Source: Seison nebaliae
Lineage: Eukaryota
DNA length: 38,024 bases
Direction of reading: 5' to 3'
Assembly: GCA_023231475.1 (NCBI GenBank)
Contig: JALJEE010002390.1
Span: 1-38,024 of the forward strand
The notes beneath the pieces were generated by a model. It had not been told where the DNA came from and searched no databases. It saw only the letters and a list, made by a program, of their open reading frames with translations. The first letter of the stretch is position 1. Each line of letters begins with the position of its first letter. The translations under genes were made by a program, and so were the position numbers. This document shows, in pieces, positions 2,528 through 38,024 of this stretch.

Positions 2528-2855
2528 ATGAAATTCTTCTTAATTTGTTTAATAGTTTTTCTATCTTGTCTTTACGTATCAGCAACAATTCCTGAAGTTA
2601 CAGTTCAAATCGGCAGAAAATTCTAATTATTTCTTTCAAATAAAGGATGATGAATTAGCAGTGCATTCTATCGATCAAATCGAACCAGTCGAATATACAG
2701 TCACTCCAGATTATGGGAATATGACGGTTTTTCTTTTAATAATTTTATATTTATAAGAACTTCTTTTAAAACAGATGGCGGATGGAAAAAACAAGGGAAA
2801 GGGATGGTATGATTTCGTTAAATGGTGGAGGCATGTGCTTTATATTTTGACTTAA
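2528..2855 (+). CDS. Small secreted prepropeptide (~76 aa), 3 exons: 2528-2596, 2646-2726, 2775-2855
   Basis: Not in the ORF track. Splicing two GTT..AG introns (49 and 48 nt, both phase 0) gives MKFFLICLIVFLSCLYVSATIPE/DDELAVHSIDQIEPVEYTVTPDYGNMT/MADGKNKGKGWYDFVKWWRHVLYILT*. It has a signal-peptide-like N-terminus and an AATAAA about 70 nt downstream. An alternative donor at 2603 would add VT. Confidence 0.75.
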
Positions 2856-3528
2856 AAATTTCCTGTTAAAATATCATTGATAAATTTGGGATTTGATATT
2901 TTATCATATTTATTGTTGTTCTTAATAAATATTTTTTGATTTGAAATGTTACTGAAAATTATTGAACGAAATATTTTATGGTTATCTGTCTCTTACCTAA
3001 CTTGCTGTTTTTTCGTTAGTTCTATCATTGTCGGTATTAATCGTGTTCATTTATGATCGATTTTGGTGATTTATTGTCAAATTGTTGGTTCGTGACATTT
3101 CCTATAATCTGTACCACGATTATTAATAGAAATAATAATATTTATTATCAAATGAATGAAGTAGTTTAGATAGAATTCAAATGAATATTAGAATAGGAAG
3201 CCGAACTTTTGAAAAAAGTTAACTAGATTATATTAGAGAAAAAGTGAATTGGAGAAGTTTAAAGGAGACTTATCTTCTCAACAAATAGCCAATAGGAATC
3301 GCCTTATACAAATCTATCACTTTCCCACTCAAATCAACAGATAATTGTAACTTTTCTAATTACATGATGTACATTGGACTGTACATAGCAAGATAGTAAA
3401 TTAAACAAAGAGAATTAGTAGCAGATAAGAGGCTACTATAAAAATAATTCAAACAGATAAATTTCTTTAGAAAAATTGTGTTCATGGAAATAAGAAGAAT
3501 TTAAATGCGAACAAGTTGTTGATCGGAA

Positions 3529-6500
3529 ATGAAATTTGCAGATAAATCTCATTTCCTCTCAATTCTCCAAATATTGTTCATTTTCAAAATTTTTGTTCGA
3601 AATGAAACAACTTTGATTTGTTCATCGAATCAATTCGAATGTAACAATTCCTTCTCCAAATGTATTGACAACAAATATCGATGTAATGGAATTGCCGACT
3701 GTCCTCCCAATGACTTTTCTGACGAATTGAATTGTTATATAAATCAGACAATTCAATTGAATTGTGATCCTCATCATTATCGATTTGTGAGAGGTGAATG
3801 TGTTCCATTAAATCGGATTTGTGAAATGGGTCAGATTTTAAATATGAAGGAAAAAAAGGATTGTGATGAATCGAAACGATTGTGTAATGAATCGAATATT
3901 TGTGACCCATCGATGCAATGTATTCCACTCATCAATTCTATTCAATGTGGTTGTTCTGCTGAAGATATTTTTTTTGAAGCGAAGAAAATCTTTCGAAAAT
4001 GTCCGATGAAAACGAATGATGATAATCAATTCAATTTATTTCATTCGGAGAGAGATGGATGTGAAAATCGTTTGTGTGGAAAATGTGAACATAATTGTGT
4101 TAATGGGGCAGAATGTGCATGTTATGTGCCATATCGATTATTTGATAATTATCGATGTCAATTAAATAAAGAATTAATAAAGAAAAATCTTCTTATTTTA
4201 TCTGGAGAGAAATTAATTATTGTTAAAGATTTAAATTCAACTTATGTGGTATGGAAGAGTGATGAATCGATTATATCGATCACTTCTTGTCTCTCATTTG
4301 ACGGACGAATTAAAATATTTTGGAGTGAAAAATCATCGATTCATTATGGGGAATTATCGTCAACTGGAAATGATATTTATCGATTGATTCATCATCGTAT
4401 CATTTATCGAACAATAGTCAATTCAAATATTCGTTCAATAGTTGTCGATTGTTTTAGTGAGAACGTTTATTGGATCGATATCTTCCAATTGGCACTTTAT
4501 CGAAAATCATTTCATTCCAACGATGAATATGATGATAATGAGATGTTATATCATTTCGATGAATTGACAAATCATTTAAAATTTACATCAACTCTCTCCA
4601 TCGACCAATATCAATCGATCATCTTTTATACGATCAATTGTGAAATTATCATGATGGATTTGGATGGAAATGAAATTTATCGTTTTAAATTAAATTTCAA
4701 TGACCATTCCTGTCTTTCCACTTTTATTTCAATGACCATTGATATCTTCTCTCAAAAACTTTATTTATTTGATATCAATTATTCGAGTATTGAGGAATGT
4801 CGATATACGAAAGAAACCATCGAATGTCGTCAATTGATGGTTTTGGAGACAAATGTTCACATATATTCAATGGCAATACATGAACATCAATTATTTTATT
4901 CAAATGACAAATCATTATATCATGTGGATTTGACGACCGTTCCAACTCATTCTCTTTGGCCACTCGAATATTTCACAAAAAATCAATCGACAATTAATCC
5001 ATATGAAAATTATGTGAATGATTATTCTACAATTATCTATTCGAATAATCAATATTTATTATCTATTTCTAATGTGCCAATGAATGAATTTCTCATATTT
5101 CGTGAACGATTACCTGATTTATCGATGTTATCTCATCAAATTAATAGAACGAATAATACAACTCTTCTTCAAAAATTTCTCGATGAAAAATTTTCAAAAT
5201 TATTCGATTTGAATTTGGTGGAATCGAAAGAGAACGAAACAATTCGATGTGATCAATTATCGATTTGGAACGATAAATCTAAATCATGTTCTTGTTATGT
5301 ACCATATGTGATGAATAATGGAAATTGTGAAATTGGAAATTTCTTTTCCATCACCATCGAAATGGATCGAGAGAATGTGATTGATAAATTTTATCGATTT
5401 TCAATGAATAATTTCCTCGTTCAACATTTTCCTATTGTCAAACAGAAATATAATGAACTGAAAATGAGAATGAGATCAGACATCCATTTTCGAGTATCGT
5501 TAATGATGAATGGAAACCGTTCAAAACGGATTCCACTTTCCCACAAATCTCAATATGTCGTTCATGATTATTTCATTTGGAATCAATATATTTATTATTT
5601 ATTAATCAATCTCGAATATTCTTATCATTTCAATTTCCTCTTATATCGATCATCTATTATTGCTGATTCGACGAAAGAAGAATTATTATATGAATCAAAA
5701 TATTTTTCATCATCTATCTTCGATTACAATTATCGAATTTCTGTTGATGGAATTATTGAAGAGAAGTTTATTTATCTTTCTTATCCATCATCTCCCAATC
5801 AATCCATAATCCAATTACTTGAATTAAATAAGAATGATATGAAATCATCAATTTTGATGGAATTGGACAATGTGAAAATAACATCTCTCAAAATTCATGA
5901 ATCATATCGACAAATTATTTTCAGTTCAATTAAAAAAGAATTCGAAGATGATTTCATTGTTGAAGAAACGACTATCAATTCGATGGATTTGGATGGAAAT
6001 GGAATGAGAGAAATAAAAAAATTTAAATTTGTTGATGATTGTCAAAAGAAATTCAATGAATTGAAATGTTCAAATTTAATTAAAAATAAAGAATTGTTAC
6101 GAGAAAGTAATTCATCAGAGAATCGACGTTTAAATGAAATTATTTCAATACAAATCGATTACATCTCTTCCTCACTCTGTTATATGAGACGAATTCCATA
6201 TTCTATCAATATTCCTGAAATGAGAGTCATTTATGAAAATGTGATCGATTGTTTGAATTTATTGAATATTTTAACGACATCTCATATCGACATTCATCCA
6301 ATTAATATAGTTGATGGAATTCCAATTTATATAAAGAATTTCCAATTTATTTCTTCAAATTCAAATGAATATCAGATCGTTTTATTCGATTCTTTTCTAA
6401 ATACCATTTATTCAATTCCATTCTCATCTGATAATTCGATGACATTGAAATTAGAAAATTCGATAAATATTAATCGACATCTCTTGAACAACATCTCTCA

Positions 6501-9500
6501 AATGAATGATTTGGAAAGTGATAATGATATTGATTCGGAAATAAAATATCATTATGGTGATATCGATTCTCAATTGAAAACATCTCTAATTCAATTCCTT
6601 CAACAATTACCATCATTAAATAATAGAAGAAATTCATCAATCTTCTACTTTCATCATCAAAATATTAATAAAATTAATAAATTATTTTATTTACAATTTA
6701 CAATGAAGAAAATGAAAATGAAACAGGAATTGGGATCGACATTAATTCCTAAATTATATGTGGCACATGAAATGAATTTATTTAATTCTCTCATTCTATC
6801 TATCAATTCACATTATTCAATTATCAAACGTCTCAATTTATTTCATAATGAAGAATATTTAGATCGAAAGAATGCTGAAATCAAATCATTAAAATCAACG
6901 AAAATATTATCGAATTGTAAAGAAGATGAAATTATTTTACGATTAAATTCACCATCAGTTACCAGACAATCAGTTTGTTTATCTAATGATGAATTATTGA
7001 AAAAGAGAAATATTTCATTTATCTTCTTTCCCAATTTTCAATCGAACAATAACTCATTTCCATTCGTCGCTCAACAATTCCACCAAACGTTATTTCCTTT
7101 CATTTATCTCTTACCAAACGACTTGCGTCATTATTTGAAGAGTGATGAAAAAATTGTAAAAATATTTTGGAAGAGAACTAAAAACGATGAAATAGATTGG
7201 AATCTTATTATTTTGAAGAGATTTAATCATTTTACAAATTCTTTTCAATCATTTGATAATGAAAATGAAAATGATTATCAATTGAAATTAATTGGAAATC
7301 AGATGGATGAAACGATTATTGATGAATCGATATTTTTCCAAAAACATAAATTATTTTTGAAACATATTAATTTCAATTCGATTATTCTCTTCAACAATTC
7401 TCTTTTTTATTCCATTATCAATTTGAATATTTCACAATTCTCGAAATCGTCGAGTGGAACTCTTCTGGAATTGGAAGTGATCGAATGGAATCCAATTGAA
7501 ACGACCGTTTTATTTTCAATTAATTTCTCGTTAAATAATCAAATATTTTGGGAGAACGAGATGGAAATGGAGAATAATGACACGAATTTTTTCTTTCATA
7601 AAACAAAAAATTATTTAAATGAAAATTTAATTAATAAACCAATGGATGAAATGAATGATTATTTCCAATTGAGAATATCAAACGATTATATTCTCATCAA
7701 ATATATGGAATTGAATATTACTTATTTTCACTTTTTCCACAAACCAACTCATAATCATAGTGATGGTTTATCAATGGAGAAATTGTTTCATATCAAATCG
7801 GAATTTGTTCAACTTCGATTATTAGAAATTTTCCATAATCCTAAAAATAATGCAACACAATTAATTGTCATTTATCTCGTTCGTCAAACGAACATGTTCG
7901 AAGGACAACTTTGTGAGTTTATGAGTTGGAGAGGATGTCTCGAACAATTCTTCACTTTCTCCTTCATCGAAACGGATCGTATAAAATTAGGATTTGATAA
8001 TAATCGACTTCTCATCATTCGAACGAATGGACAATTTTCATCTTTCTCTTTAGATGAAGTGAAGAAATTCAAAGAGAAATCTTTATTATTATTTCTGTCT
8101 CATAATATATTAATTTCGAATGTGGATCAATATCAAATAAGTTTTCCATCAGAAATCATTTCAGAAGAAATGAAATTAATTGAAAAAAAAAAAAATTCGA
8201 GAAATTCTTTCAATTATTTAGTTGATTTGCAAGTGAATAATCAATCAATAATTTATGAAATTAATGGAAATTATAAATATTATGATTATCGGAAATTGAT
8301 TTCAATGAAGAAATCGGATGTGATGGAAAATGGAACGTTATTTCTAGAACTATTTCAAATATCTTCCTCCATTATTCTCATGAGTGTTTCAAGAGAAATT
8401 GATGGAATTTATTGTGAATTCAATTTAATTTTTCATAATTATTCAAAATATTTTTTGACGAAATATCGAATAATTAAAATAGAATTCCCTTTATCAATCT
8501 CCATCTCATCTAAACAATTATCATTTACTAACGAGTTTCGACAATTTCTTTTTATTCTAAAATTGAAATCGATAGATGGAAATTCAGATGAACAATCGAT
8601 AATCACTTTCAATATTCATCGATATAATATTCAATTATTTATCGATGATATTCGAGATGAATTGATCGAACAAATTATTACAGATCGAAATGTCAGTTAT
8701 ATTATTGAAAAATCAAGAGAGATATTAAATGATATTCGATCAGATATTCAATATTCTTCAGAAGACGTTATCGATTATAAAATATCGATAAATTTAATGA
8801 AAGAAATGGAAGAATTAGAAATAAATCAGAGAATATTCAATGGAACATTCATAACGAAATATAATGAAAGTGAGAAAGTGGTTTGGAATTGGAAGAGTTG
8901 TCGTTTTCATTTAAAAGAAAATATTCATAATGAGAAATATATAATTAATGAATATTATTTAATTTTCCCATGGCAAATTATTCGATTTTCATTAAACGAC
9001 AAAAAAGAGAAGTTTCTGGGAGAATTATTCTGGATAACTGATCATCATAATAAACGACAATTTGATCCATTCAATCAGATTGAGGATGTGGTATTTGGGA
9101 AGAATTTTCTCATTTGGTGGCAAACTAGAAAGATTTTTTCAAATAAATTCTCCGAAATTTTCATCAAGAAAATTTCACATAAAAACGAATTTTTTCAAAT
9201 TTATTCAAGTTTGATCTTCTCCACCGATTTGATGGAAATTGAAGAAATTCGATTAATTGACAATAATCGACTACTTCTACAATTGACGAATGCTTTTGAG
9301 AAAGAAGAGAAATTTATTTATTTATTGAAAATTGATGATGAGAATGATCGAATGGCACCAGAAGTTTACATTGAAATGAGAGTTGATGTGACGAATATTG
9401 GAAATCCGTCAAATTTCCATCGAATCATTTCACGTTGGAAAGGGAAAACTTTCATTAATGATAGTGATAAAGAGAGATTGAGTGATAATCATTTAATTAA

Positions 9501-12500
9501 TGAATTATATTTAATGACAAAATCATATTCGACGAATAAATTAGAAAAAGATTTTCATGAGAATACGAAGAAATTTTATGATAAAATTATGATAAAAGAC
9601 AATTCTATTTTACAATGTCCACCAAAAATAATTGAAGGAATTATATCATGTCAACATCAGATGCAATATTCAGCATATCTTCGATTTTATTTTGAATCTA
9701 ATAAAAAATTACCGATGGAACATTTGAGAAATAATATTATCTCTCAATGTATACGATCTGAATGGATTTGTGATGGAAAAGTAGATTGTTTAGATGGAAG
9801 TGATGAATTCAATTGTGATTTAATGAAATTACATTTACCCCGATTCTCTCATGATCATGTTGATGATTATGAGAATAATAATAATTTTATTCCTGAATTC
9901 GATTGTAAAAAGAATCGACATGATGAACTGATAATCGTTGATGATCCAATGGAAATTATCGATTATCGACAAAGATGTGATGGAAAGATTGATTGTGAGA
10001 ATGAGAGTGATGAATGGGAAGAAGAATGTAAAGATCTCTCACCAGATCGTTGTCCATCACCCTTAATTCCATGTGGAAATACATCGAAATGTATTTTGGA
10101 ATCGTCGTTATGTGACGGTATTGTGGATTGTGTTGATGGTTCAGACGAAGATATTTCCATCACCACAAATGGAAGATTTAATGAGAAATGTCGTTTACAG
10201 AAGAAATTGATGAATAAAGAGAATGTAAATCGAATTTTATTGAGAGAATGTTCATCTAATTTATTCCATATAAATGAGAATGAAATGACTACCGTTGAAC
10301 GGTTACCAGAAAAGATGAAGAAAAAAGTTCGAACATATCGTCCCAAATATAAATTCGTCAGATATATTCGATGTGGTGATGAATGTCTGAGAGAATCTGA
10401 AATTTGTTTCGATCGATATAATTGTCGAGAAGATCAAAAGTTTTGTGGTTTCCATCAACATTCCATCTCGCCATTGGAGGAACATCAATTATTTCGAAGT
10501 CATTTCAATTGTGATCATAATGAGAATGAATTAAATTCAAATACACAATGGATGTGTCACAATTTGGAGAAATGTATTTCTGGTACACGTGTCTGTGATG
10601 GGATAGTAGATTGTGGAGATACATCAGATGAAATGGATTGTAGAAATTCAAATAATTTCACTCATGATATTTATGATCAATTTTATGATTTGACTATACA
10701 ACCGTTCAATATGGAATTTTGTCAATCAAATCAGAATAATGTCATCGCATGTTATCAATGTAAGAATAAATGTATTGAAATGGAGAGTGGAAGTTTAAAA
10801 GAATATTTACCAATATTAAATTGTCTCATTTCTGCATATTCTTTAAGTCAATCGATAATCAATGAAGAAATTTTCTTCTTCAACTCTAAAATTAATTTAT
10901 TGTCAATCGAAAATATGACAATGAATCAATGTGTTGGATTTGAGCGGAATAATAAGAAATTTCATTTAATAAAATTTTTTAAAAATTTCTTATCGATCAA
11001 AGTGGATGAGAAATCGAATCAATTATTCGATGTGGAATCATCATGTCTGATTAATGGTCAATCGCCATGTCAAGGAAAGAATACGATATGTCGTGAACAA
11101 TTCCCGATAAATGAATGGATGAAAAATATGAGAATGAATTCATTAAATCATTTTTTTCTATTTCTCTCTCCACTTTATCGATGTGAATGTATTGAAGGAT
11201 ATGAATTCATTGATGAATATAAATCGATCGATTGTAAAAAAATTGATGAATGTCTCCTTCCTATCACATCATCATCATCATCATCGAGAGAAGATTATAT
11301 TCATTGGAAAATGATTGAGAAGAAATTTGAACGAATTCATCTCCCACCAAATAAATGTTCCTCTACTCAATTAGATTATTCAAATTTCGATAATCGATTT
11401 CTGATGACAGATCATCATCATATCTATTTATTTGATGATAATTCAAAATTTCTCATATTGGACAATGGGAAAGCATTCCTCTCAACTGCTTATGATATGG
11501 AAGGAAAATATTTATATTTCGCTGAAATGTATCATGGACCGACGAAAGATTATGGTGTGATTAAACGGATTCGATTCGATATCGACAACGTCCGAAATAT
11601 CATTCTTCCACTTCATTATTTTGATAGTGAAATATTTCTCTATCATAATATCGGTTTACCTGAATGTATCGTTTTAGATGGAAATGGTGGAAATATCATT
11701 TGGAGTGACAAGAAATTGTCATCGATAGAAATGGCATCGTTAAAGACAAAACATCGAAAACTTCTCTATGAGACATGTGAAGAACAATCATTTCGTGCAT
11801 TATTATTTGATGAGAAGAGAAATATGTTATTCTATACCGATTGGAGTAAAGATCCACATATTGGTGGAATTGATATGAATCGAAGAAACGAAACAAAACG
11901 AATTGTTGACAATAAAAAATTGATGGAATTTGGATTGTCGATCATTTGGCCAAATTCGTTAGTTGGTGATGATGAACGATTGTATTGGATTGATGGTCGA
12001 TTAGGATATTTGGCGAGTATTCCATATAATGGAAATTTATCACAAATTATAATTTATTATTCAAATCATTTTCAAAAAGAGAATATTTTACTTCATTCTT
12101 TTTCCATTATGGATGGTGGAGAATATATTTATGTATCTGATGTATATCATAAATCAATTATTCGTATCTCTAAATTGAGTGGAATTGATATGAAAGAAAT
12201 TCATTTGAATTCTAATGAAATTATTCATCGAAAATATCGTCAAATGAAAGAAATCGAAACAATTTTCACTTTCGATTCAGCCCCATTAAGTTTGAGAAAT
12301 ATTGGGAAATTTTCATCAAGACATCAATGTCATTTATTAGATTGTCATGGATTATGTCTGATGAATGAAAACGGACAATTTTGTGAATGTGATGATGAGA
12401 TGGAAGTGATTGATGGAAATGGATGTCGATTAAAAAATTATACGATAAATATCGTTGGATTGAATGAATGTGATAAAAAGATGTTGAAGAGAATTAATCC

Positions 12501-18051: not shown

Positions 18052-18063
18052 AATAATTTTTGT

Positions 18064-18397: not shown

Positions 18398-19157
18398 ATG
18401 GAAGATGAATTTGAAGAAATAATTGACGATCTGATTTTACTTTTAAAAAATGAAAAAAATTTTAGGAATATCACAAATCGTTTATTTTCTTTTTTTGAAC
18501 TTGAACTACTTTTAATTCTCTTCTAATTAGAATCGTATAATGAGTCGTTAATGAGATGGATCATAAAAGAAATTAATAATAATTTCGTTAGTTCAACATC
18601 TTCTTTAATTGATAAAATAATAATGAATTTATTGGTAGTTAGAGAAAATAGAGAAAATTGAGAAAGATGAAGAAATTGTGAATTATATGAATTCATCAAT
18701 TGATTGTGAGAGTATGTTGAAAGAAAAATTGACGAGAGAAATGAAATTGAAATTATTTGAATTTCTTAAACAAAATTATAATTTGGCATTAATCGGAGTG
18801 CACAATTTCCCCAAATATCAAATCATCGCTAAATCGACGAATGTAGACGTCAGTTCGAAACAATTTACTAATAATAAAATAATCGATGCATTCTATGGAG
18901 GAAGTGATTATCATTCATTTAACGACATCAAATGTTCTTTGTCATATAATGCAAAAGAAGAAGTGAATGATGAGAAAAGTAGAAGAATAATAATAAATTT
19001 ACATCATTCTTCTGGAGTTCATTCGAAATTGATGAAAACAAAATTATCGATGAATTGGTCATCATTTCTTGTTGTATATAAGAAATTGGACAAGTTGAAT
19101 GAAACATTAAAATATTCGTCTCATTTGAAACTACTGAAATCTATCGGTAAATTATAA
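18398..19157 (+). CDS. Hypothetical protein (~218 aa), 3 exons: 18398-18479, 18531-18586, 18639-19157
   Basis: MEDEFEEIIDDLILLLK... joins ORF 18678..19157 in frame through two GTT..AG introns (51 and 52 nt). AATAAA follows the stop immediately. No family recognised. Confidence 0.7.
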
Positions 19158-19341: not shown

Positions 19342-21950
19342 ATGGAAGACAAGAAGAAATGTCTGAAAAGAATACCAACCATTTTCGCATCAAACACTTC
19401 CATTCATGGATTCAGTTTTATAATTCATTCAAAATATAACATTCTTTAATTCCATTTTGAAAGCATTCCGATTGGAAAGTACTACGAAGAAAAGGAAACT
19501 TTTCTGGAGTTTTGTCATATTAATCGGTTAGCATGGAATTTTCAATGATACTTCATTAATTTAATTAAGGTATTGTTGTTATGTTTTATTTTGCAACGAT
19601 TGACTTTATCGAATATCATTATACGAAACCGACAATCACATCCAGTTCTAAGATGTATATGCACAATCTCGATTTTCCTGCCGTTTCCATCTGTAAATAT
19701 CAACAGTTTGAAATTATTAATCAATAATTCTGCTTAATATGTAAAATTAATCTTAAAATGAAATTGAAGATTGAGTAAGAAAGAGTTGACTGAAAGACGA
19801 GAAGTGAAATATTTGATGGACTATTATAAAATGCTTTTCCGATTGAACAATACACGTCATGCAACTTATAACGATCAAGTAGGAATGTTGGAGAATTGTT
19901 TCATCGAAAGTAGTTAGCTTATTTATCCGATTTTCAATTTAATTTTTTAATTTTAAAAGATTATACTTATGGAGAGATATCTCGCTATGCAGTTCTTTAT
20001 ACAACCATGTCATTATGTGCAGAAGATATTGATGATATGTTATACAAGAAACGATTATTGGTCGTAGAATATTGGCGATTGAAACGAAGTAAATTCTATT
20101 ATCGGTACAGTAACAATACGAGACAACTCACACAAAAAGTTCTTTAAAAGTTTTCTTCATTTTCAATTCTTCAAATTTCAGTTCCGAACTTGTCTCGATA
20201 CGAGATTGGACGAATTATGGCCGTTCAATTTAAATATCAGTGAGATTGTTTGGGATGTTCTCGATAACGGAATAAGAAACGTCAAATGTTCTAAAATGAT
20301 AGTGAAATATGTGACGGAAAGGAATCCGATTCCTCTAATGGATCTACCAGAGAACGGAGTCCAAATTCTTGTTCCCAAAATGCTCGTTCATGAAATCTAT
20401 TTAACAGTTCTACATTTATTCAAAATCATTGCTTTGAAACGAATGATTAGTATACGAACGAATGAAATCGGTTAGGAGTCAATTTGATGGAAATTCCAAT
20501 GAATGATTTTCAGCTAAACAGACGAAAATGCACAAGATAATGCCAGAGATTAGTTGGGATATTAAGCAGAATATAATACAATGTCATTTCAGTGGAAATG
20601 AATGTGATTTAAATTTGGTTAATTCATTTTCCTTTTAAAATTTCAAGAAAAAATTTTAACAGTTTAAAAGAAGATTTGCTGAAGCTGAAATTTGTTATAC
20701 ATTCAATTGGAATGATACGACAACGTTAAATCAGAATTTACCTGGTAAAAGTTGCCGATCTTCCATCATTATTCAATATTATTTGACTTATATTAGACGG
20801 TGGATTAATTATCGGATTAGATCTCAAATCATTCGACACATATGAGGAGTCGTATGTGTTCGATCCATTCAAAGGAGTGAAAGTTGTCATTCATAATCAG
20901 AGTGATGCAATTGCGAGTAATTTCCGAGGCATTCCATTACAATCGGGTCGATTCTCTTATATCAAATTGAATCGAGAGAATGTTTCCTTAATTTTGTTTA
21001 TTTGTGTAAAATTTGAAAAATTTTTTCGTTTATTAGACGAAATTATTAGATGCAAGTGACGGAGGTAATTGCCAAGAAGACTATTTATTACCTCTCTATG
21101 GGTCATACTCGTCTTTCAGCTGTCAATCCAATTGCTATTTCGAACGTGTAGAGAATAATTGCGGATGTATCGCTTATACTGATCCGAGAATGGAGAACTC
21201 ATCAATAAACAAACCGGATTATTGTTCATCCCTTGACTCACATATCTGTTTGAGTAAAATGAAGAACTTAAGTTTATAGATAATTCTCATTATTTTCCCA
21301 TTAAATTCCCAATTTTGAAGAACCAACAGAAAATGATTTCGTTAATACGAAAACATGTAAAATGTGTTCGGCACCGTCGTGCATCGAATGGCGATATTCT
21401 CCACAGGTGACAGCCATCGATTTGGATTATAATGTCATCTCTTATTATACGACGAGTGAAGAGATTGATTGTTTGAATGAGAAGAATGCATCGGTGGTCT
21501 TGCCATTTAATGTGGATTTCTGGCAGCCAAATCTCACTCTATTGAAACGTCATTCGGATGTTTGTCTAACGAGATATAATTGGAGGTTTCTTCCTCAATC
21601 CTCCAACTAAATTCTCATCATTCCTCTCCCATCTCCCCTCCTTCTAATAGGAATAGTATTCTCTATTTTTCTGTTTATTATGATGAGTTGGCAACATTAA
21701 CGACCATACAAAAACCGAAGAGGAATATATTCGATTTTCTAGGTTTCATTTGTGAGAAATTAGGAAATGGGAAATTATTCGAATGTTTGTTCTTTTTTCA
21801 GGTGCTTTAGGCGGTACAATGGGTCTTTATACTGGAATGAGCATTATTAGTCTTATAGAAATTATAGAATTTATTAGTGTTTACATATTCACCGTATGCA
21901 CGATATTAGCAATGAAACGGAAAGTATCATCATCGGATAAAATCAACTGA
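19342..21950 (+). CDS. DEG/ENaC (ASIC-like, amiloride-sensitive) channel subunit, ~666 aa, 13 exons
   Basis: Exons 19342-19414, 19464-19526, 19570-19705, 19770-19912, 19960-20138, 20182-20470, 20514-20617, 20663-20750, 20797-20981, 21037-21271, 21321-21585, 21651-21742 and 21802-21950 sum to 2001 nt in frame. Motifs: pre-TM1 TSIHGF; FPAVSIC; CHFSGNEC; CYTFN; GVKVVIHNQ; Cys-rich thumb YSSFSCQSNC...CGC; TM2 GALGGTMGLYTGMSIISLIEIIEF. Confidence 0.92.
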
Positions 21951-23716: not shown

Positions 23717-24034
23717 TTTAGAAAATATTTATTTACGAACCTTCTCCAAAATTTTCTTTTCATTAAATATTTCTTCTTTTATCAGAAAACTTAATCATCT
23801 TCTGTCAGTTATGCAGAGAAAATCGATTGAGATTGAAGAGCTTATTAAATATACTATTAAAAAAAGACGGTTTGAAATTATATCCAAATTAATCGTAAGA
23901 ATAATAATATTACATCTTTCTCTAGTTAAAACTACATCATATTTCAGTTTATCTACTTTCATTTACCATATTTTATTTCAAGCGCTGTCCAAATTATTTC
24001 GAAGTTTAATTAGTGAAAAAAAGTATGAGAGCAG

Positions 24035-24059
24035 ATACCTAATACCTAATACCTAATAC
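24035..24059. repeat. (ATACCTA)3.5 heptamer repeat; the same unit recurs in reverse orientation at 30506-30520
   Basis: atacctaatacctaatacctaatac here, and ttaggtattaggtat at 30506. Confidence 0.8.
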
Positions 24060-24347
24060 TTTTTTATATATTTGAACTTCAAATCAAATTTTAAAGTTCC
24101 ATAGTTAGTAGTAATTTAGTTATTGAATTGTATCCTAGAATAAATTTAATTTTATGAATAATTGAGAAATTATATAGTTTTTTCCTAAATCATCCTTATT
24201 TCAATTTTTCTCCATTCATGTTTTAATTATTTTAATTGTGATAAATGTTTAGGTAAAATGAAATTATTCATCATCCATGTCAATGATTCGATTTAATTTC
24301 ACAATTCTTGTGATAAATTAATTTATAGAAACTGATTAATGAAATAT

Positions 24348-24950
24348 TTATTCGAAAACATCTACAAAATTATCTTTCCCAATAATGATCTTCTCATCTG
24401 CCTCTCCATTGCAATAACCATAATTTCTTCCATGTTGTTTCGCTATTTGACAAATGGCCTAAAAAAATTGAAAACTAAGAAAATTATTATCCGATGAAAT
24501 TGAAACTGCGAAAGTTTTGGGTTCAAAAATCGCTAAATCTGAAAGACTTTTCTTATTCAAACGAATATTTTGCTTCAAACATTTCATTAGAGATTATTTG
24601 AAGAATTAAAGAAACTCGATGTAAATGGTCATGAAGTAATTGATTTGTCATTTGGTGTTCATTGGCAGCGGCTTCTAATCGAAAATTCCATAACTTAAAT
24701 TGAATAATTTGAGAAATTCATTCAAATGAAGGAAGATGAGAACTTCATTCATTTCTAATTTTCTGACTTGTCGATGTCTTGTTGATGTTTTCCATGCATG
24801 TTCCATTTTCTCACGAGCTATCCTATAACAATTCCTTTCTCGTCCATGATAATTGATGGTATGTCGGAAGATTTGCATTCTTCGCCATCTTCTGTCGGGT
24901 CCATAAACTTTTGGAATAAATTTATTCAAAAAGATTTTTGACAATTCCAT
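24348..24950 (-). CDS. MRPL20: Mitochondrial ribosomal protein bL20m, 153 aa, 4 exons: 24950-24744, 24693-24616, 24572-24507, 24458-24348
   Basis: DRRWRR.QI......YHGRERNCYRIA / LWNFRLEAAANEH / QNIRLNKKSLSDLAIFEPKTFA are L20 signatures. Three phase-0 GTT..AG introns of 50, 43 and 48 nt. Confidence 0.93.
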
Positions 24951-25201
24951 TTGTTGATTTGAGCTTAGCTATTAATTTTAAAAAAAAAGTAAAGAAAATT
25001 TGTTGAAGAAATCGAGTGATTGTCGACTAGTTAATGAAGGATGAAGAATTAGGAGAATTTCCGTTTAAAGAAAGAGAAATTTTCTCATTATTCTTTTGAC
25101 AAAAAAATAAAAGTAGAAGATAAGATGATTGATTTAATTGAAACATAAGTCATTGTCATGGAATCAGATTTTTAAATTCAACTTAATTCTCAAATTCAAA
25201 A
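24951..25201. promoter_or_regulatory. Putative bidirectional promoter between MRPL20 and TBCCD1
   Basis: The divergent start codons are only 251 bp apart. This is a positional inference; no motif was identified. Confidence 0.55.
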
Positions 25202-27529
25202 ATGACACAATCAAAAAGTTGTGAACGATCAGATGTCAGTTGTCAATTGTTCGCTCGAGCGGAATTGTGGGTGAATGGAGGAATTCTGACCATTCCATAT
25301 CCCAATAAAAATACATTTAACGTTTCCGTTAGGCATCTCATTCTCTCCATCAATCTTCATTTTTTTTTATCGTTTATCAATTTATTTAATCATTTATTTT
25401 TAGACGTTGAAACGAATTTTGACTTATGCAAAAACAAAAGGGACGACTGGAATGCCAAAATTATCGTTAAATCTTTTTTTTAATTTCAATCAAAATTTTC
25501 AAATTTCTCATATTTTAGTTGGACAATTTGGAAACATGTGATATGTTCGAAATTGAGTCTTCATGAAGATTTGGCATGGGCGTTCGTTCGTTTATTCTGA
25601 TTATTCATTCTCATAAATTTTCCAGATATTTCGAGACTTATATGATTGTGAGTGATAATCGAACGGCGGAATTGATCGAATTCGAAAGACGTTTACTTCA
25701 TGCCAATTCGATCAGTGAAAGAAATCAATTGAGAGAGAAATTTAGTGTAGATACTATTCGATTCGTTTTACTTATGTATCTCCTTCAATTCAATGATGGG
25801 GCAGCTCCAGCCAGTGCTCGATATTCATATTCGGATGATGAGTTTAAAAATTTTAATTTGAAATTTAATTCTTCATTTTTAGATGGCCAATGAGAGCAAC
25901 ATCACCGATAATTGATGGAAGAAGTCGTTCGAAACGTGCGGCTGAATTACTTTTTCTCACATTCTTCCAACAGAATATGCAACACATTCTTGACTTATTA
26001 TTAACATCGGAACCAGGTGAGTTAATTATTTATTCGAATCATCTACTCTCATTGAGAATAGATAGTGTGAAACATTCGACATCCAAAGTATCGATTCATA
26101 GAAAGACTTTAGAAGCTCTCTCATTCTTAATTGAAGGAACATTTGATGGTGGACGAACTTGTTATCCCGTTCACTCCATATTAAGTCGACCAGACTTTTT
26201 AAAAGAAGTCAATTTCGATCCGACTACCAATCGATATAATACCACTGATCTTCAAAGATGGCTCGTTAATAATTTGAGTATGAATCCAAACGAGATCTCA
26301 ACTTGTCTCTCTCGTGGGAAACATTTATGTTAATTTAAATTTCTTTTATTATTTATCAATTTCTCTATTAATCTCGATCTTTTTCAGATGTTACATCTCA
26401 GAATCGAACAACAAAAATTATGACAAATTTCAACTTTGTGGATAAAACGTTTTTTTTTTTTAAATATTTTTAGTTTTTAATAAGGAAATTATTTAGTAAT
26501 AAATTATTGTATATTTGTGGATTCAGTCATCAGACGATTGTGGATGAAGGCGAAAATTATGATATGGGAAATGTGAGAATTCATCGATGTGTTAACAAAT
26601 GTGATATTTATGTTTTGGCACCGGTGAAGTTTTACTTAACCTTTTTTTTTTCTTCTTCAAATTTTTTCCAGGTCTGTTGTTCTTCATAAATGTCGAAATT
26701 GTCGAATTACTTTGGGATGTGTAAATACCTCGTTACATATCAGACAGAGCGATAATGTTACAGTGACGGCAGTTTGTCGTCGAATTTGTTTGATGGATAC
26801 TACGTCGTGTACATTATATATTCATACAAATTATCGTCCACTAATTCTTGGAGTTAATTTTAAAATTCTAATTTCAATAATTGGAAATTTTGAATGAAAT
26901 AGGGATGTTCCGATATAACATTAGCTCCTCATAATACTTTCTATCCCAAATTGAAGAATCATATTGAGAGATGTTCAATTTTGACGACAATCAATCGATT
27001 CAATGAACCGTTAGTTCTAGGAGAGACAGGTTAATTAATTTTTAATTATCTTATTCATTCCTCTCTAATGTGAGTAGCCAGTCAAGAGAAACAATTTTAT
27101 AAGTTAATGGATCCAACAAACTTTTATCCATCTGCTTTACCTATTCAGATGGAAGGGAATTACAACGAAATGGATTTCATTCATTTACCCTCCAATTATC
27201 GAAACGCTTTAGAAGAACGGAAATTACAATGTAATATATTTAGAGAAACACTTCAGTCAACAGTGGGTACAGCTCATCGTACTGAAATGAATAAATATAT
27301 TCAATGCCAATTTAAAGTTTGTTTTTAATTAAAAATTTTGAAGGAAAATAATTAAATTAATTCATTTCAGAAATATCTAATGCAAAATCGACTGTCTGAT
27401 ATTCTTGCAATCTCAAATGATATGGATACATGTCGATCTCATTCATCGACGGGTATGTTATCGAAGAATTTGGGAGCATCATCTACTACTGCCAACGGAA
27501 CGATAGCAGCAGGTCGATCATTAAGATAA
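25202..27529 (+). CDS. TBCCD1: TBCC domain-containing protein 1, ~588 aa, 12 exons
   Basis: Exons 25202-25327, 25404-25465, 25519-25581, 25626-25841, 25883-26016, 26062-26328, 26388-26448, 26497-26628, 26672-26852, 26903-27029, 27078-27316 and 27371-27529 sum to 1767 nt in frame. PKLSWTIWKHVICSKLSLHEDLAWAYFE, VDTIRFVLLMYL, EALSFLIEG and the TBCC beta-helix (VRIHRC...IYVLAPVKSVVLHKCRNC...RPLILG...LAP) match TBCCD1. Confidence 0.9.
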
Positions 27530-28660
27530 ATATTTCGAAAACGAATTAACATTTCTCTTATCTCTTTCAACTCATCATATTGCTGTCCGATGTGTAAATG
27601 TTACATTCCTTTTGACGTTTAACAAATAAAACATTTCTTTCTTCATTTTCCCATGATGAGAAAGGAGGGAAATGATTGGAGAAATGAAGAATTTTCTTCT
27701 TTTTGCCATTCGAAGTAGTAGAACTTAATCATTACCATATGGTATTGGGAAGAGGCAGAAGATTTCCATGTACATATTTCAGTAAAAGAATATGAATTTA
27801 TCGATAAGAGGAAGAATAATTATCATTTATCTTGAAATTAAGATTTTTCTTCTATTTTAATTTTACCTCGTCAATTTCCTTCTCAATTTCTTTTAAGGAA
27901 TTTTTTTCTTTTTTCCATTTGTCGATTAGAGATGTGTTAGGATAGATCGAAATTGACATTCTTATCTTAATATTTACTTTATTCAGACGAAGAATTAAAA
28001 AGTGCATAAGACGAAATAGGAATTTGTTGAAAGGAATATCGGAGAATGAAGAACAATTTAGTTATTTGATTATGTTGACCTGTAAATGGTGTAAATGTTT
28101 CAATTGAGAGAACGATTTTATTCGATTCATTGTCAATGTCTGATTCATCACCCATTTATTTACATAAGAAGCAAGTAACTCGAAAATGCAGTTTTCAGAA
28201 GGACATCAGAGAAGTGATAATGAAAAATTTTAATGATGGTCATTCCATGTTGATAAGATTTCTCCAATCTAAATAAAGCAAACAAATGAAAGTCATGACA
28301 AGTCATGCTAACTCTCCACATTCATCCCACTATTCACACCAATTTATTCTCACTCAATTGTTATCCACATCGACGAAAGTTTACCAGTTCTTGAATGATT
28401 TTTCAATTTGTCAAAGAGACGGAACGGAAAATTGGATGTGCAAGATCGCAGACTTCAACTAATAATTGTTCTGTCATACGTTTCATGTTGGATTTTTTTG
28501 TTGAATTAATGGAAAAGAATTTAATGTAAATTTATTTTGACAATTAATCTTTTCATCATACTCATCTCTTATTCACCTGAGAAAATAATAATAATTATTA
28601 TTATTATTATTATCATCAAATCGTATTGTTATATCATTTTTTGAATTAAGTTGACCGAAA

Positions 28661-30313: not shown

Positions 30314-33300
30314 GATTACATCATTTTTGTAATTTGATTCGAAAGAAATCACTTTTAATAAATTATTTTCCAATTAATCCAATTAATACGACTAAACTTT
30401 AAAGGCTTATTCGAATTTCTCGAATGATTTCCAGGAGAAAATGTCGAACGATCATTTGATATGGTGGAAGGAAAGAATACTTATCAGGTATACTTGTATG
30501 GTAAATTAGGTATTAGGTATACTAAAGGAAATAAAACAAGAAAAATTGAAGACGATTTTTTTTCAATTGATCAATTGAACTGAAATAAGAACTGAATTCA
30601 GTTAAGATTTGATGATGAGAAGAGATATATGTTTAATAAAATCCAAATTTACAGAATGAGAAGTGATCCATCAATGAAAGAATGTTTTTTGGGAAAGTAT
30701 GCACATAAACATAATCTGTATTTGCTGTGCATAATACGTATGAATTCTTACTACGATGCACGCAACATAAAATTTAGAAGGACGTGAAAGAAATTTTGAA
30801 AGAAGAATTTGTTTTTTTTGTATATTTAGATAATCTTTTTGGATAGTTTATTTGTAAATTACATAAAATTAGGTTGGTGAGAATATGATTGTAGACGGTC
30901 CACGCCATCTATTTTATCTATTCAAGGAAATTATAGAATTGGAGAATGTTTATTCCGTACTTATATTTGTCATAAGGCATATATTAGGGGCATGGTGGTG
31001 GAAGAAGGGAGGAGGGAAGCAAATTAATAATTAATGTACTGGAGATTCGTATGTTTAAAATTTCTCTAAAGATATTCTTTAATCCCGAGTTCTTCCTTCG
31101 ACTAATTCACGTGGATTCTTTTATTAACAGAATTTTTGTTTGTCAGATAAACAGGCGGACAATTGGGAGAATTCCTCGTTCTTTCTACGTCCAATTAATT
31201 TGCTTCATGTTAATTTGTCTTTCAGATGAACTGATAAACAAATGAAAGTGAATGAATATTAACATTTTCCTATAACTTATTTGATCTTTTCCAATTACCT
31301 ATCCGATTAGCATTGATTTAATAATTCTCGTTTGACGTATTGAAAGAAGAAGAAGAAAAAGAAGAAGGGGTAGTGTTCATCTTAAATGACGTGTGCATTT
31401 CGTGATATTTGAAGTAAAGTCGTTCGTTCCTTCTACATGATATTTTCTCCCATAACATCTTACCGAACTAGATGGTAGCTCGTTCTTATTATTGTGTGAA
31501 TTCATGCAAAGATTAAACACATTTTACTTTATTAAATTGAAATGAATGATTTAGGGTAAGGAGAACTATATTTCTTTTTCCACAATCACTTTTATATTCC
31601 ATCAATATTTTCCTTATTAATAATAATATCATTTTTAATTTAAACTTTTATTTCGTTTAATTTCCTTTCATCTAAACATTTCAATTCTTTTCCAATTTTC
31701 TCATTACTAATTTCATAAAACTCGCTGACGAGTTAGAATCAATCGTTCGAATTTGAGAGTTCGGACGACATCAGGAGAACTTTTAGTCGTTCCATCGAGT
31801 GTCCAATATATTGGACCGATGTGAATGAAATAATCGATCTAATTCGAAATTAATGGAATTAGATCGAGCAAGAATCGTTTAGTCATTCTCCATTTTATGT
31901 TTTTACACCAATTTAATCATTTAGTTCATGACCCCAACCTTCTCCATAAACAAAATCTATTTACTAAATTATTCGATGTGAAGCACCATTTGGAGAATAT
32001 CATTTGAAAAAAAAGTGGTACGGAAATTTTTCAGAAAAACATGAATTTCTCAATTAATTCTATACTCTTAATATAATCATCTTGTCAATATAATTCCAGA
32101 ATACAACTAGTAAACCCAACAGAATGTTGATATTCCGGTTTTCTTCTAATTAGGTTAATGTAATTCGATAATTTTTAAACAATTAACTTCTTTTTCTCTT
32201 CTCCATCTCAACTCAATTTTATTTACGTCATAACTATTATTATTGAATTTTATAATTAAAACAAAAAATTATGAATTTGTTCGATTACGAAAAAGTAACT
32301 TTTAATCGTCCAAATGAGGATTGGTTTGCTTCGACAAGAAATGAGACGATTGAGAGATGTTTATATGATTTCATGTTATCTAACATAGTCTCTAAATTTT
32401 CATGTAAAGTACTGATAATGGAGGTTAGGTTGAAGGGAAATGGAACAAGTAGAAACTAATGATTGAGAAGGAGTAAATCTATGTTCATTTTTAGTTGAAT
32501 GCCTCCCAGTGTCTCTTGAGCAGTAACTAGACAGAAAAAATAGACTTTCTTCTTTTTGAAAGTAGAAACTTTTCCGCGTAAGAAAAAAATTGAACGTTAT
32601 TGTCGTCATTCATCCGATGGGATCATCGAGGAGGGTAGAATCGTGAATGCATATCATCTCCATCTAAATAATTTTAGTGGGTGGTACTGTTTCTTTGTCA
32701 CATTCGAAAATGGGTGTAATTCGTTGACCACCAAACATTATACGGATGATCTCATCTTACAGGAATTATGGAGCTACTTCTTATTATACCAACGAATTAA
32801 TTCCTTTTGAATGTCAGGGTCAAAGAAATTTTTAGTTGATCTTCTTTTCTATCCGAATGACTAGTGAAGATGAAAATAATTTTCGGCATTTTCATTCTTC
32901 TTCCAACCGATTGATTGTTGACTATTTGTTGGAAACAATTTCTGTTTATTTACCTTTCCAAATATCTAAATTAGATATCGGAATAAAACATAATGCCCAA
33001 TTGACAATCGTATGCTTCGTTTAGATGAAGTCACATTATTTTGTTGAAATTTATTGATGTCAATGTTATGCAAAAAATAAAGGACAGTTAAGTTATTATG
33101 ATATCAAATAATTTTCCGTGCATATAGCGACAATTAATTTTGATTTCGGCCCATCTTTTTTTCAATGTTCCTCTTTCTCATCGAATTAGTATCGATGTCC
33201 ATTATCTATTCAATTCATTTCTACCCGAAATTTTCGCGTGACGAAATTAAGGAACTATAAAATGAGGGAAGGAATTATAGAACTCAATTCGTTTGACAAC

Positions 33301-34189
33301 AGCTTCATCTGTTCACCTATACGAATAAGTCGTTTGTTCGAATTACATCCCACTGGTACGTATGGAGCATATATAGTTCTTGGTTTTAAATGAAAAAATT
33401 AAGAATATCTTTCATCATTTTACGTATCATAATCATCAAATAAAATTTAATTCTAATATTACTAGTTTAAATGATACTGTCTATGAATAGTGGACGAATG
33501 ATGAAAGTAATATCGTTCTTTCTGGTGTCGCTATGTGAAGGGAGAAGGGGAGAAAGAAGATGACATTTTCAAAGATATCAATGAATAAAATTTCATTAGT
33601 AAATGTCTAAACAGAAACATATTATGTATTCGATTACAGTTTAAAATTTCTATTACATCCTTCTCCTTCCATCTTCTTCTGCCAGGTAGTTCGATATAAT
33701 AATAAAGTTATTTATTCGATTAACATCAATAAAAGGGAAATATGGTGGAAGTAACCAACCGATAAATTGAAGGTATGACACATATCGTTTTCGTCAGGAG
33801 AAGAATATTGAAATGTTGTTTGTTTGATTAAAAGGAAGTAGATTCGTCCATAAATATTGTGGATCTGATTAGAAAGATTGAGATTGAGATAACATAGATA
33901 GATAAATATCGACTCACTTTATTCCGTTTCATAAAAATTTACATAATTTTGATGGGAATTACAGATAATTGTGAATTATCTCACTCTAGTATGTAGTTGT
34001 TATTAGGGAGATACGTAAATGCACAATTATCTTAGATTTGAGTTATCTTTTACATTGTATTATTCATTTTGTTTATTCATTATTCGTTCTTTATCATCCT
34101 TATTAATTCCCAAAACAATAAGTTCGTTAATTATTGACATTATTCCAAAACAGAAATGTTCTTTTCTTCATGAAAGTAGTTTATGAGTT

Positions 34190-36067
34190 ATGATGATTGG
34201 AAAATTTCCATTTTTGTTCATTCTTGTGCACAATTCATACGTCCATTCCGCTCCAAACATTCAAGTAACAATGCCAAATGATGACAACTACCACAATACT
34301 ACTCAGTCTCAATCGGAGAATATTCCAAAGATTATTGCCTTATCCATCATTCTAATTCTATTATGTTTGGTGACGATTTTCGGCAATTTAATCGTTCTCA
34401 TTAGCATCGCAACTCAGAAACGATTACAAACCGTTTGATTTATTATTATTTATTATTCATCATTTTCATTCAATTATATAGGTGGGAAATCTTTTCATTG
34501 TCAGTTTAGCATCAGCCGATATGATTGTTGGAACATTTGTGATGCCATTAGCAGCATTATATCTGATTTTGGGTGAATGGGTTCTTGGGAAATTGATGTG
34601 CAATTTATGGTTATCAATCGATTATACAGCGAGTACTGCAAGTATTTTTGCTTTGTTACTTCTCTGTATTGATCGTTATACGACAATTAATTATCCTTTG
34701 AAATCTCTAAGTAATCGAACTAATAAAAGAGCGTTAATCATGATAAGGTTTCTATCTTCATTTATTTCAATCAATTCTTCATCATAAATTTTAGTATCAC
34801 CTGGCTCATCTCATCGTTGTGGGTTCTCCCGATAAATTTATGGAATATATCAACTATTCCGATGGATGAGAAGAGAATGAATAATTCTCTCAATAAAACG
34901 ATGAAAAGACAATGTTCTGCACCTTATGATAATAATGCATTGTTCAAATTATTAACTGCTGTAGGTAATTTCTTCGTTCCACTCATCACAATGATTGGAT
35001 TGTATGGGAAGATTTATTGTATCATTTATAATCGATCAAAAGTTCTACGATCAAATGATTTCACCAATAACGATAAAAACTTGTCAGTCGTGAGATCATT
35101 AACTGGGAAATATGAGAATATTCTTCAGAAGACACGAAGGAAAACTTCAGATACGAAGAAACCTCTTGTGAGACGATTAACCTTTCAAGCATGTTCACGA
35201 GCGACAATCATTCGAAGTGATTATAGTACGAGTAACGACTTTTCCAAAGTAGAAATAAATGGTAAAAGTAAAAGATGTGAAGAATTGACAGTGAGAGAAT
35301 GGAAACAATTATCCATCGAATTAAGAAAGAAAGTTCTATTGAGAATGATCGTAGAAGAAACAAGACAACAGAATGAAAGAAATTACAAAAAGAAACTTTG
35401 GAAACATTTCAAAAATCGTTTATCATTCAATTCTTTCAATAATTCCAAGAAATATTCAGCATCTTTAGAAACGTCTCGTCGAACATTCTCCAATAGTTCC
35501 ATTCTAATGCTCCTGCCAAAATCTTCGGGAAATCGTCTATTTTCCCACAAACTCTCACCTTCAATTCCCAATTCTTTCAACTATCCAAATATTGCCCAAA
35601 AAACTTTATCTTATCCAAATTTATCGATTCAAGATACAGTTATTCCAAAAGCCAAACGTAAACCAACAATGCGACAAATAAGTTTATTCACCGAAATGGA
35701 TGAAGGAAAATCCGTTAAAAGAGGTTTCCACTCGAAATTGAGAAAGAGTTTCGAGACAAAATCAACTGGAAATCTACTTCAATTAAACACGTCGTCGATG
35801 CATCTGATATCGCCGGATGTGAAAGCTGCACGACAACTTGGTTTAATATTATTCGTTTTCACCGTTTGTTGGTTACCGTATTTCATCTTATTTATGATCG
35901 TTGCTATGATTCCTGATCACAGTTCTTCATTAACATCCGCCTTATCGATAACTGTTTGGTTTGGCTATTTGAATTCCACCTTCAATTGCTTCTTGTATCC
36001 ATTGAGCAATAAACAATTCCATATTGCTTTCTTACAATTATTCTCAATTAAACCGCAAAGAAAATGA
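34190..36067 (+). CDS. Histamine H1-like aminergic GPCR, ~593 aa, 3 exons: 34190-34432, 34482-34747, 34795-36067
   Basis: LQTVGNLFIVSLASADMIVG..VMP, WLSIDYTASTASIF..L.LCIDRY, FKLLTAVGNFFVP, KAARQLGLI...F..CWLPYFILFM and WFGYLNSTFN.FLYPL.N closely follow the H1-receptor pattern. Introns of 49 and 47 nt. The start could instead be ATG 34271. Confidence 0.85.
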
Positions 36068-36182
36068 AGAATTCTTAATAATTTATATTTATAGAATTAT
36101 CGTAATATTCCGGTGAGGGTAATTCTTCCACAAAACTTGTATAATTTCATTTTTTCATCATATATATACATTCATTCATTTC

Positions 36183-38024
36183 TTAGGATAATTCTCTCGT
36201 TTCATCATCATTCATTTTCCACATTGTTACTGGTAATAAATTTTTTACAATTTCATCAATTTCAAAATTATGAAAATCTTATGAAACATGAACTGTTAAA
36301 ACATTTTTTTCAATTCTTTAAAGGAAAATTTATTTCTTGTAATTATTATCTAATGAAAATTAGTTAATTTCACTTTCATTTTGAACAATCTCTTCATCAT
36401 CCACCTTCTCATCAACAACTTCCTCTCGATGAGGGAAGATACACATTAATAAACATTTCGTCTTTCCAGTCAACAAGTTCAATCGGTCAATATTCGTAGG
36501 AAATAACCATTTGACATATCGTTCAAGTTCCAATTCGGAAAGTTTCTCATCGTATTGTTTAATCGTTTCCAAAAACTTTTCCTTCGTCAAATGACTGTAA
36601 TGAGAATGTTAATTAATATTTAACAATTATAATCAAAACTTTTCATTTTGAAAATATTTCTCGAAATAATTGTTGACATATTTATTTTTTTCAGTAAAAA
36701 TTTGTTCAAGGAATGTTGAATGAAAATCTGGCAAACGGTCATCATCTTCCTACGAAAAAATAAAATTAGTTTTTTATTCAAATTTTTGAACTTCAACGAA
36801 AATTTGTTGGAACGGAATTTGTGCATTCATTTCCGTCTCATTGAATTTTTCCTTTAAAATTTCGGTCAATTTTCTGGTATCCGTCATCGATTTCTCGGGG
36901 AAGGCTTTCATAATAATATCTTGCACTGATTTCAATTGTAAAGTTTTCTCCTTGATTGATATTGTGAGATAAATAAAAATGATTATTAAGATGAACTTGT
37001 TCGGCTGATTTCGGTCTCAATAAAGATTTTTCTTCTTCCAACAACTGTTCTTCGAGATAAACAAGACAATTTTTGAAATGATAATAAGAATATTCTTCTT
37101 CTTTGTCGTTAGAGATACGCCAAAATAATTGAAGGAAAACATTATTTTTAAGTCTCTTACATGTAACATTAATATTATATGTCCATTCCAATGCCATTGA
37201 TTCGCTGGGAAATTTCGACTTGGAATAATTCCAATAATGTTCAACAAAATCTTCGATGGATGATCGATTTTTAATTCGTTCAATCCAAAATTGTTTAATG
37301 AAATAATGTGCATCTCGTTGGGATAATCGACGATTATAAATAGAATCAGTCGTTTTCAGGAAAATTGGAACATTTTGTTCTGTCTCCTAAAAGATTGAAT
37401 TTTTGGAAATAAAAAATAATTGAATATAAAATTAAAACATTCGGCTGGAATTGTTGTTGTGGATGAGTTTCTATCGATGTCAAATCATTCAACAAATTAT
37501 CTAAAAGGACAATAGATGAATCGTTTTCAACAGCTTTTTTCCATTCCTGTTTATTGGAAAACATTTCCCCATATTTATCCCATTGTGGTCTATTCGTATA
37601 AGAATTTCAGTATAAGAATCAAAACTTCAAATAACCTTGGAGTAGATGTTCTTTTCAATGTTTCACTTTCATTATAATATTCATCTCGCTCAGTTGTTAA
37701 TGTGTCCACTGCAGTTATCAGACGACTGAAAAGATGTTTGAAAATTTTTAAAAATTTTCCATTTCGAAAAACTCCAACTCATTCTCTGTAGTTATCTCAT
37801 CAACATGTTCCTTTACCAATTTGACTTCTTCATTTAAGTCATTGAAATTTTTTGAAAGTTCTTCGAATTCACTTTTTGGAACGACATTTCGGTATTCAGT
37901 TTCCATACGGATCACTTTGTCAACGGTTCGATTGAGATCTTCTCGACATTTTCTTCAAAAAAATATATGTTATATTCATAACCTATTCACGACTAATAAA
38001 CTGTAGTGCTATTTTCAATAGTTT
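36183..38024 (-). CDS. TSNAXIP1: Translin-associated factor X-interacting protein 1, 3' portion (5' end beyond window), 8-9 exons in window
   Basis: The spliced minus-strand product reads KLLKIALQKCREDL...ME.EY.NVVPKSEFE, ERDELY.E...LKRTSTPR, VPIFLK, MALEWTYN and FLEQIF.EK, matching recalled TSNAXIP1 motifs. Seven GTT..AG introns. The 3' end is uncertain: stop at 36360, or a further exon ending at 36183. Confidence 0.8.

Follow-up and report, generated by a model that had tools for sequence, protein, structure and literature searches.

We analyzed the exon-intron structure of a stretch of genomic DNA from Seison nebaliae, a marine epizoic animal and member of Rotifera (contig JALJEE010002390.1 of assembly GCA_023231475.1; the whole stretch of 38,024 nucleotides is called the window in the following). 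The analysis concerns the 5' splice sites (donors) of its introns, nearly all of which begin with GTT. The GC content of the window is 26-33%, and its gene content comprises an ENaC/DEG channel, two rhodopsin-family G protein-coupled receptors (GPCRs), MRPL20, a TBCC-domain protein and an LDL-receptor-repeat protein. Three deposited S. nebaliae proteins, SNEBB_004930, SNEBB_004927 and SNEBB_004933, were matched at 100% by single-exon queries (NCBI). Because the exons are identical to S. nebaliae proteins and the window encodes animal genes, the GTT introns sit in the animal's own genes. Five genes carry the main set of introns:

25202..27529, + strand: TBCCD1-like gene, SNEBB_004930 (exact mapping of the deposited protein; Pfam TBCC); 11 introns, 10 GTT and 1 GTG, at 25328-25403, 25466-25518, 25582-25625, 25842-25882, 26017-26061, 26329-26387, 26449-26496, 26629-26671, 26853-26902, 27030-27077 and 27317-27370
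19342..21950, + strand: ENaC/DEG channel, 3' part of SNEBB_004927 (Pfam ASC, profile 1-455); 12 introns, 12/12 GTT, at 19415-19463, 19527-19569, 19706-19769, 19913-19959, 20139-20181, 20471-20513, 20618-20662, 20751-20796, 20982-21036, 21272-21320, 21586-21650 and 21743-21801
36360..38024, - strand: TSNAXIP1-like gene, SNEBB_004933, interrupted by the contig end; 7 introns, 7/7 GTT, at 38001-37953, 37778-37726, 37635-37590, 37438-37387, 36996-36951, 36791-36750 and 36639-36595
24348..24950, - strand: MRPL20; 3/3 introns GTT, at 24743-24694, 24615-24573 and 24506-24459
34190..36067, + strand: rhodopsin-family GPCR (Pfam 7tm_1), called 'H1-like' in a preliminary description of this DNA; 2/2 introns GTT, at 34433-34481 and 34748-34794

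Homology and protein models, rather than transcripts, are the basis of all introns. The three deposited proteins were mapped back onto the DNA with any dinucleotides allowed, which gave 32 introns, 31 of them beginning with GTT. At each of these 32 junctions exactly one GT-AG placement reproduces the deposited protein, and the gene predictor behind the deposited models may itself have demanded GT-AG. From this set we left out the introns at 18480, 18587 and 19094 (all GTT), which lie where the 5' end of the ENaC model lacks homology, and added six hand-read ones, namely three in MRPL20, two in the second GPCR (34190..36067) and the first TSNAXIP1 intron. The resulting core set consists of 35 introns in five genes, on both strands of one contig, and contains all 35 donors that the preliminary description had listed for these genes, each recovered at a GT-AG intron. 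34 of the 35 core donors are GTT and one is GTG. The core introns are 41-76 nt long, and their acceptors are TAG (16), CAG (10) and AAG (9), the share of AAG being higher than in typical animals. The sole non-GTT donor is CAG/GTGAGT (the slash marks the exon border) of intron 26017-26061 in the TBCCD1-like gene, a near-perfect canonical site. It has a tandem alternative, GTTAAT...ATAG at 26021-26065, which is of equal length and keeps the frame. In the TSNAXIP1-like gene, homology (37906-38024, - strand) runs upstream of the deposited start, through one further intron, to the contig end, so that the deposited SNEBB_004933 model is 5'-truncated.

Alignments with homologues from other species lend junctions a support that does not depend on the donors of the deposited models. 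ASIC5 aligns with the ENaC model without gaps at junctions 19415, 19527, 20618, 21586 and 21743, and with gaps of one or two residues near junctions 20751 and 20982. For the TBCCD1-like gene, the alignment with TBCC from the PDB spans junctions 26629 and 26853. A hidden Markov model (HMM) of TSNAXIP1, built from 10 other homologues, ranked the GTT junction top among all GT/GC options at 6/6 deposited introns, two of which offered one candidate only, and it aligns without a gap across the first intron (38001). With a GPCR HMM the GTT junctions were best at both introns (64 vs 33 bits and 27 vs 16 bits), so that for these two genes together the GTT junction came first at 8/8 introns. Against PDB MRPL20, exon 1 reaches residue 66 and exon 3 resumes at residue 93. 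The 26 residues in between match the length of exon 2, which has 26 codons; queried by itself, exon 2 gave no PDB match, and each MRPL20 intron has one viable GT-AG option. Junctions in poorly conserved regions depend on the deposited models. Of the contigs from four sequencing runs compared with 18101-38024, those of three runs were DNA-like, with 0 intron-skipping joints, and those of the fourth did not align; they are silent on the junctions either way.

The excess of GTT might be an artefact of AT bias combined with a circular choice of donors, in the preliminary description or in gene prediction, or else a peculiarity of this one contig, since GTT is the commonest GT context and all data come from five genes on one contig. 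T follows GT at a frequency of 0.41 in the window and likewise of 0.41 in non-coding stretches, which the 34/35 donors exceed (Fisher P=6e-12); among 281 non-donor GT in gene bodies the frequency is 0.38 (Fisher P=3e-11 vs donors). GTT is favoured over GTA by composition (0.41 vs 0.21-0.28), contrary to the initial expectation that AT bias would give GTA about as often as GTT. Inside introns T follows any T at 0.55, and 17 of the 25 non-donor GT within core introns are GTT (0.68), which is the strongest result against an excess at the donors; at 34/35 the donors are still higher (Fisher P=0.003). AT bias is therefore insufficient, as the donors exceed both the 0.41 and the 0.68 backgrounds. 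As a check for circularity, we listed all GT-AG pairs no more than 18 nt from each core junction that keep the frame and avoid a stop. No non-GTT option was found within this distance for 28/35 core introns, and 7/35 have one (26017, 26329, 19913, 20751, 21272, 21743 and 38001), which makes the original wording of 37 'unambiguous' GTT donors too strong. Even in the worst case, with all seven ambiguous introns counted as non-GTT, 28/35 remain GTT (P=3e-6 vs 0.41, P=0.002 vs 0.55). Wherever homologues of other species served as a test, they favoured the GTT junctions, and five unrelated genes on both strands agree. We consider an artefact very improbable and the GTT donors in the window very probably real.

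The other donor positions were compared with background as well. Among the 32 model introns, +4A, +5A, +6T, +6G (3/32 vs 1.7 expected), +7T, -1G (8/32, P=0.14) and -3C are at background, and -2A is mildly enriched (18/32, P=0.015). G at +5 is enriched both in the model introns (10/32, P=5e-6) and in the core set (10/35 vs 5.5% background, P=1e-5); it is found in a minority of core donors, yet at five times background. T at +4 occurs in 17/35 core donors and does not differ from its 47% background (P=1.0). The claim that +4 to +6 vary freely consequently holds for +4 and +6 and fails for +5. The +3T code is real in the window and goes beyond composition; the proposed 'minimal GUU' signal needs the qualifier that +5G is still selected. 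A purine at +3, as in the GURAGU consensus, is present in 1/35 core donors, and the usual animal donor classes have collapsed (GURAG 1/35, AG/GU 6/35, union 6/35). On average the donors match the canonical U1 target at 4.0 of 9 positions, and three donors match GT alone. A target with T at +3 reaches 4.9 of 9, an increase that follows from the +3 count itself, and a GTTTGT-type target gives the highest mean match, 5.1 of 9; GTTTG is found in 3/35 donors and GTTTGT in 1/35.

A shifted register, in which U1 would pair one base into the intron on a GUU-RAGU type of site, was considered as well. Such a shift would fit the frequent A at -1 (18/35) and a shifted match count of 65 vs 55.5 expected (P=0.07), but +6G and +5A stay at background, and the strong enrichment of +5G goes with a normal-register count of 67 vs 49.7 expected (P=0.002). 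As +5G is enriched and +6G is not, donor reading follows the normal register, and a shift is hardly credible. The shifted register, minor (U12-type) introns, for which the RTATCC donor occurs in 0/35, and pure AT bias were each tested and rejected.

The introns themselves are T-rich (48% T) and their interiors contain 5.8% G and about 15 GT per kb. Of the 30 introns with a length of 41-65 nt, 15 have no GT besides the donor in that length window and 20 have no other GTT there. A branch-point motif YTRAY was found in 23/32 introns vs 15 after shuffling (2/500 shuffles reach this value), a weak signal from one of six motifs tried, and CTRAC in 0/32.

In the normal register, +3 lies opposite nucleotide 6 of U1 small nuclear RNA (snRNA) and, at a later stage, opposite the G in the ACAGA box of U6. 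No RNA gene was found in the window with Rfam. For the proteins of the splicing machinery, BUSCO results are available in the supplement of PMC12256650. In the rows listed there, S. nebaliae is the only one of 25 syndermatan genomes in which METTL16, the U6 methylase, is 'Missing'; the gene is present in the other 24, in one of them fragmented. PRPF8, SNRNP27K, PRPF6, PRPF31, ZMAT2 and MFAP1 are 'Complete' in Seison, as is the Sm/SF3 core; SNRNP40, SPF45, LSm2 and ZMAT5 are 'Missing', and U1C, LUC7 and U1-70K are not among the rows listed (PMC12256650 supplement). The BUSCO absence of METTL16 is no more than a hint toward its loss. ZMAT5 is a U11/U12 protein. A rewired donor recognition, as proposed in the preliminary description, is a reasonable suggestion; the BUSCO absence of METTL16 is one of the correlates that it predicts, and two of the candidates named there, PRPF8 and SNRNP27K, are not lost.

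The best explanation for the GUU donors would be a U1 with A at nucleotide 6 together with an unmethylated U6, to which we assign a probability of roughly 0.45. A instead of U at nucleotide 6 of U1 would pair with +3U. A likely loss of METTL16 would leave U6 unmethylated, and the usual GURAG donors would lose their advantage. A signal of three to five bases may suffice where introns are 41-76 nt long, G-poor and defined across the intron. The near-fixed +3T, the residual +5G in the normal register, the collapse of both usual donor classes and the BUSCO absence of METTL16 speak for this explanation; +4 and +6 are at background. A change in U1 is favoured because Entamoeba, the sole +3U lineage considered here whose U1 is described, changed its U1, and lineages shifted at +4 mostly did not. 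In C. elegans, where 44% of wild-type donors are GURAG and 32% AG//GU (6/35 for the two classes together here), mett-10 mutants shift away from GURAG donors, for example to AA//GUUGU and UG//GUUG (PMC11347140). METTL16 loss would account for the missing GURAG class and the neutral +4, not for the fixed +3.

Several observations weigh against a changed U1 with unmethylated U6. The lone GTGAGT donor fits the canonical site perfectly. Among 121 metagenome loci listed, 109/109 full-length U1 copies have T at nucleotide 6; the search pattern left nucleotide 6 free with the rest of the arm fixed, and no locus is known as rotifer. Most lineages with changed donors have kept a canonical U1, including 69 Saccharomycotina, Giardia, Trichomonas, Micromonas and Thecamonas, their changes being mainly at +4 (bioRxiv 10.1101/2022.06.08.495308). 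Pairing would usually yield graded conservation rather than a single fixed position beside free ones. The 'Missing' status of METTL16 may reflect divergence, because 356/954 BUSCO genes are missing in Seison, 76 of them Seison-specific (PMC12256650 supplement). Finally, systems that lost METTL16 changed at +4, to which the loss is tied as +4U and not +3U (PMC10581693), and moved to AG/GU, which mett-10 loss favours as well (PMC11347140); in Seison +3 is fixed, +4U is at background and AG/GU is not enriched.

Some minor observations were made in further searches. One AT-rich metagenome U1 locus was inspected and looks insect-like. On metagenome contig L121 (1-2834) U1, U2, U4, U5, U6 and 5S lie within 2.8 kb, and on contig L186 (1-4747) U1, U2, U6, SRP RNA and 18 tRNAs lie within 4.7 kb. 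In viral contigs the U1 motif was matched at 120 loci, 0 of them U1-like. A TSNAXIP1 locus of bdelloids, sought for a comparison of donors, was not found in collections of viral and prokaryote sequences.

Alternatively, U1 may be canonical and +3U be read at the stage of U6 and the catalytic core, by wobble with the G of the ACAGA box or by pairing with a substituted A, once U6 is unmethylated. A near-invariant +3 beside the invariant GU would resemble an active-site constraint, and GUUUGU permits more pairing with the U6 ACAGA box (bioRxiv 10.1101/2022.06.08.495308). The best mean match of the Seison donors to a GTTTGT-type target, the BUSCO absence of METTL16 and the retained +5G point in the same direction. 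On the other hand, +4T and +6T are at background and GTTTG is rare among the donors, and in yeasts the U1/U6 sequence is reported not to be associated with the +4 change (PMC10581693). We regard this readout as rather unlikely. Somewhat less likely still is a selection of GUU by a protein, such as U1C, LUC7, a TIA1/Nam8-type U-binder, Prp8 or a B-complex factor, in combination with intron definition and with both snRNAs canonical. The short, T-rich introns, whose non-donor GT are already 68% GTT, would suit such a protein; the spliceosome may be altered, given the BUSCO absence of SNRNP40, SPF45 and LSm2, and the U1C of Entamoeba is highly diverged (bioRxiv 10.1101/2022.06.08.495308). However, a U-binder should raise U at +4 to +8 too, and these positions equal background.

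The closest precedent for the Seison donors is the GUUUGU donor of Entamoeba with its co-evolved U1, in which the 5' arm reads ACAAAC instead of ACUUAC in all five species (bioRxiv 10.1101/2022.06.08.495308). Both have GT-AG introns in an AT-rich genome, with +3 fixed as U and not a purine. Entamoeba, however, is intron-poor and uses a strict motif (88-89.5% GUUUGU; same source), whereas the animal Seison is rich in introns (35 in five genes), with a single GTTTGT donor and free +4 and +6. Systems with a METTL16/SNRNP27K-linked switch from +4A to +4U and mett-10 mutants share with Seison the loss of the GURAG class (PMC10581693, PMC11347140). METTL16 not found by BUSCO with SNRNP27K kept, as in Seison, is a state said to tolerate +4A and +4U (PMC10581693). 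With standard metazoan U2-type introns (GURAGU) Seison shares the GT-AG ends, a T-rich 3' end, residual +5G and the complete PRPF8 and Sm/SF3 core, and it differs from them by the near-absence of a purine at +3 and by the AAG acceptors.

Splicing terms gave no matches in the supplements of PMC8351084. Full-text searches yielded no account of GTT as the donor consensus of Seison, other rotifers, acanthocephalans or any other animal, in a literature that left out the majority of subscription journals and the paper on the Seison annotation. The Seison donors are apparently the first transformed donor signal in an animal. Introns of bdelloids often begin with GTT alongside GTA. If this holds, Seison would be the extreme of a trend in its clade, which lessens the surprise and sharpens the comparison. 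Transformed donors have been described mainly from intron-poor microbes with strict long motifs, and Seison is the opposite, with one position fixed and the rest relaxed. Only tentatively do we propose that the GUU donor code extends over the whole genome of Seison, as the first such case in an animal, and was brought about by a compensatory change in the U1 5' arm and by loss of METTL16 and U6 methylation. If true, an intron-rich animal could rewrite +3 at tens of thousands of splice sites and live with a near-minimal donor signal. With public data, Seison makes it testable whether U1, U6 or a protein dictates +3, and how spliceosome and introns co-evolve. The natural comparison is with bdelloids, monogononts and acanthocephalans, which are sequenced and listed as keeping METTL16. 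The practical weight lies in gene prediction in the rotifer clade.

Outside the core set, two more features with GTT introns were seen:

18398..19154, + strand: upstream ORF (open reading frame) fused to ENaC in SNEBB_004927; model-only GTT introns 18480-18530 and 18587-18638, no Pfam match
2528..2855, + strand: small putative gene; hand-read GTT introns 2597-2645 and 2727-2774, without homology support

Four small-gene donors left unnamed in the preliminary description are likely those at 2597, 2727, 18480 and 18587, which are GTT, have no homology support and lie outside the core set. SNEBB_004927 (18398-19337, + strand) links the unrelated upstream ORF to ENaC via a 244-nt intron (19094-19337), which was rejected as a probable gene fusion in the annotation. 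A hand-read intron at 32424-32494 was rejected too, with a stop 11 codons past the junction and a GTA option present; the short ORFs at 32270-33400 (+ strand) may form one gene, for which neither a consistent intron model nor a Pfam match was obtained. A 174-codon ORF at 634-1155 (- strand) has no Pfam match and presumably resembles a fragment of a DNA-transposon-derived protein. The other GPCR, at 28655-30313 (+ strand), is an aminergic receptor gene without introns, whose best matches are crustacean octopamine beta receptors (30-40% identity). A single intronless ORF of 4,842 codons at 3523-18048 (+ strand) encodes LDL-receptor class A repeats and is LRP/megalin-like. Its lack of introns contrasts with the other genes of the region, which are densely split by 45-nt introns.

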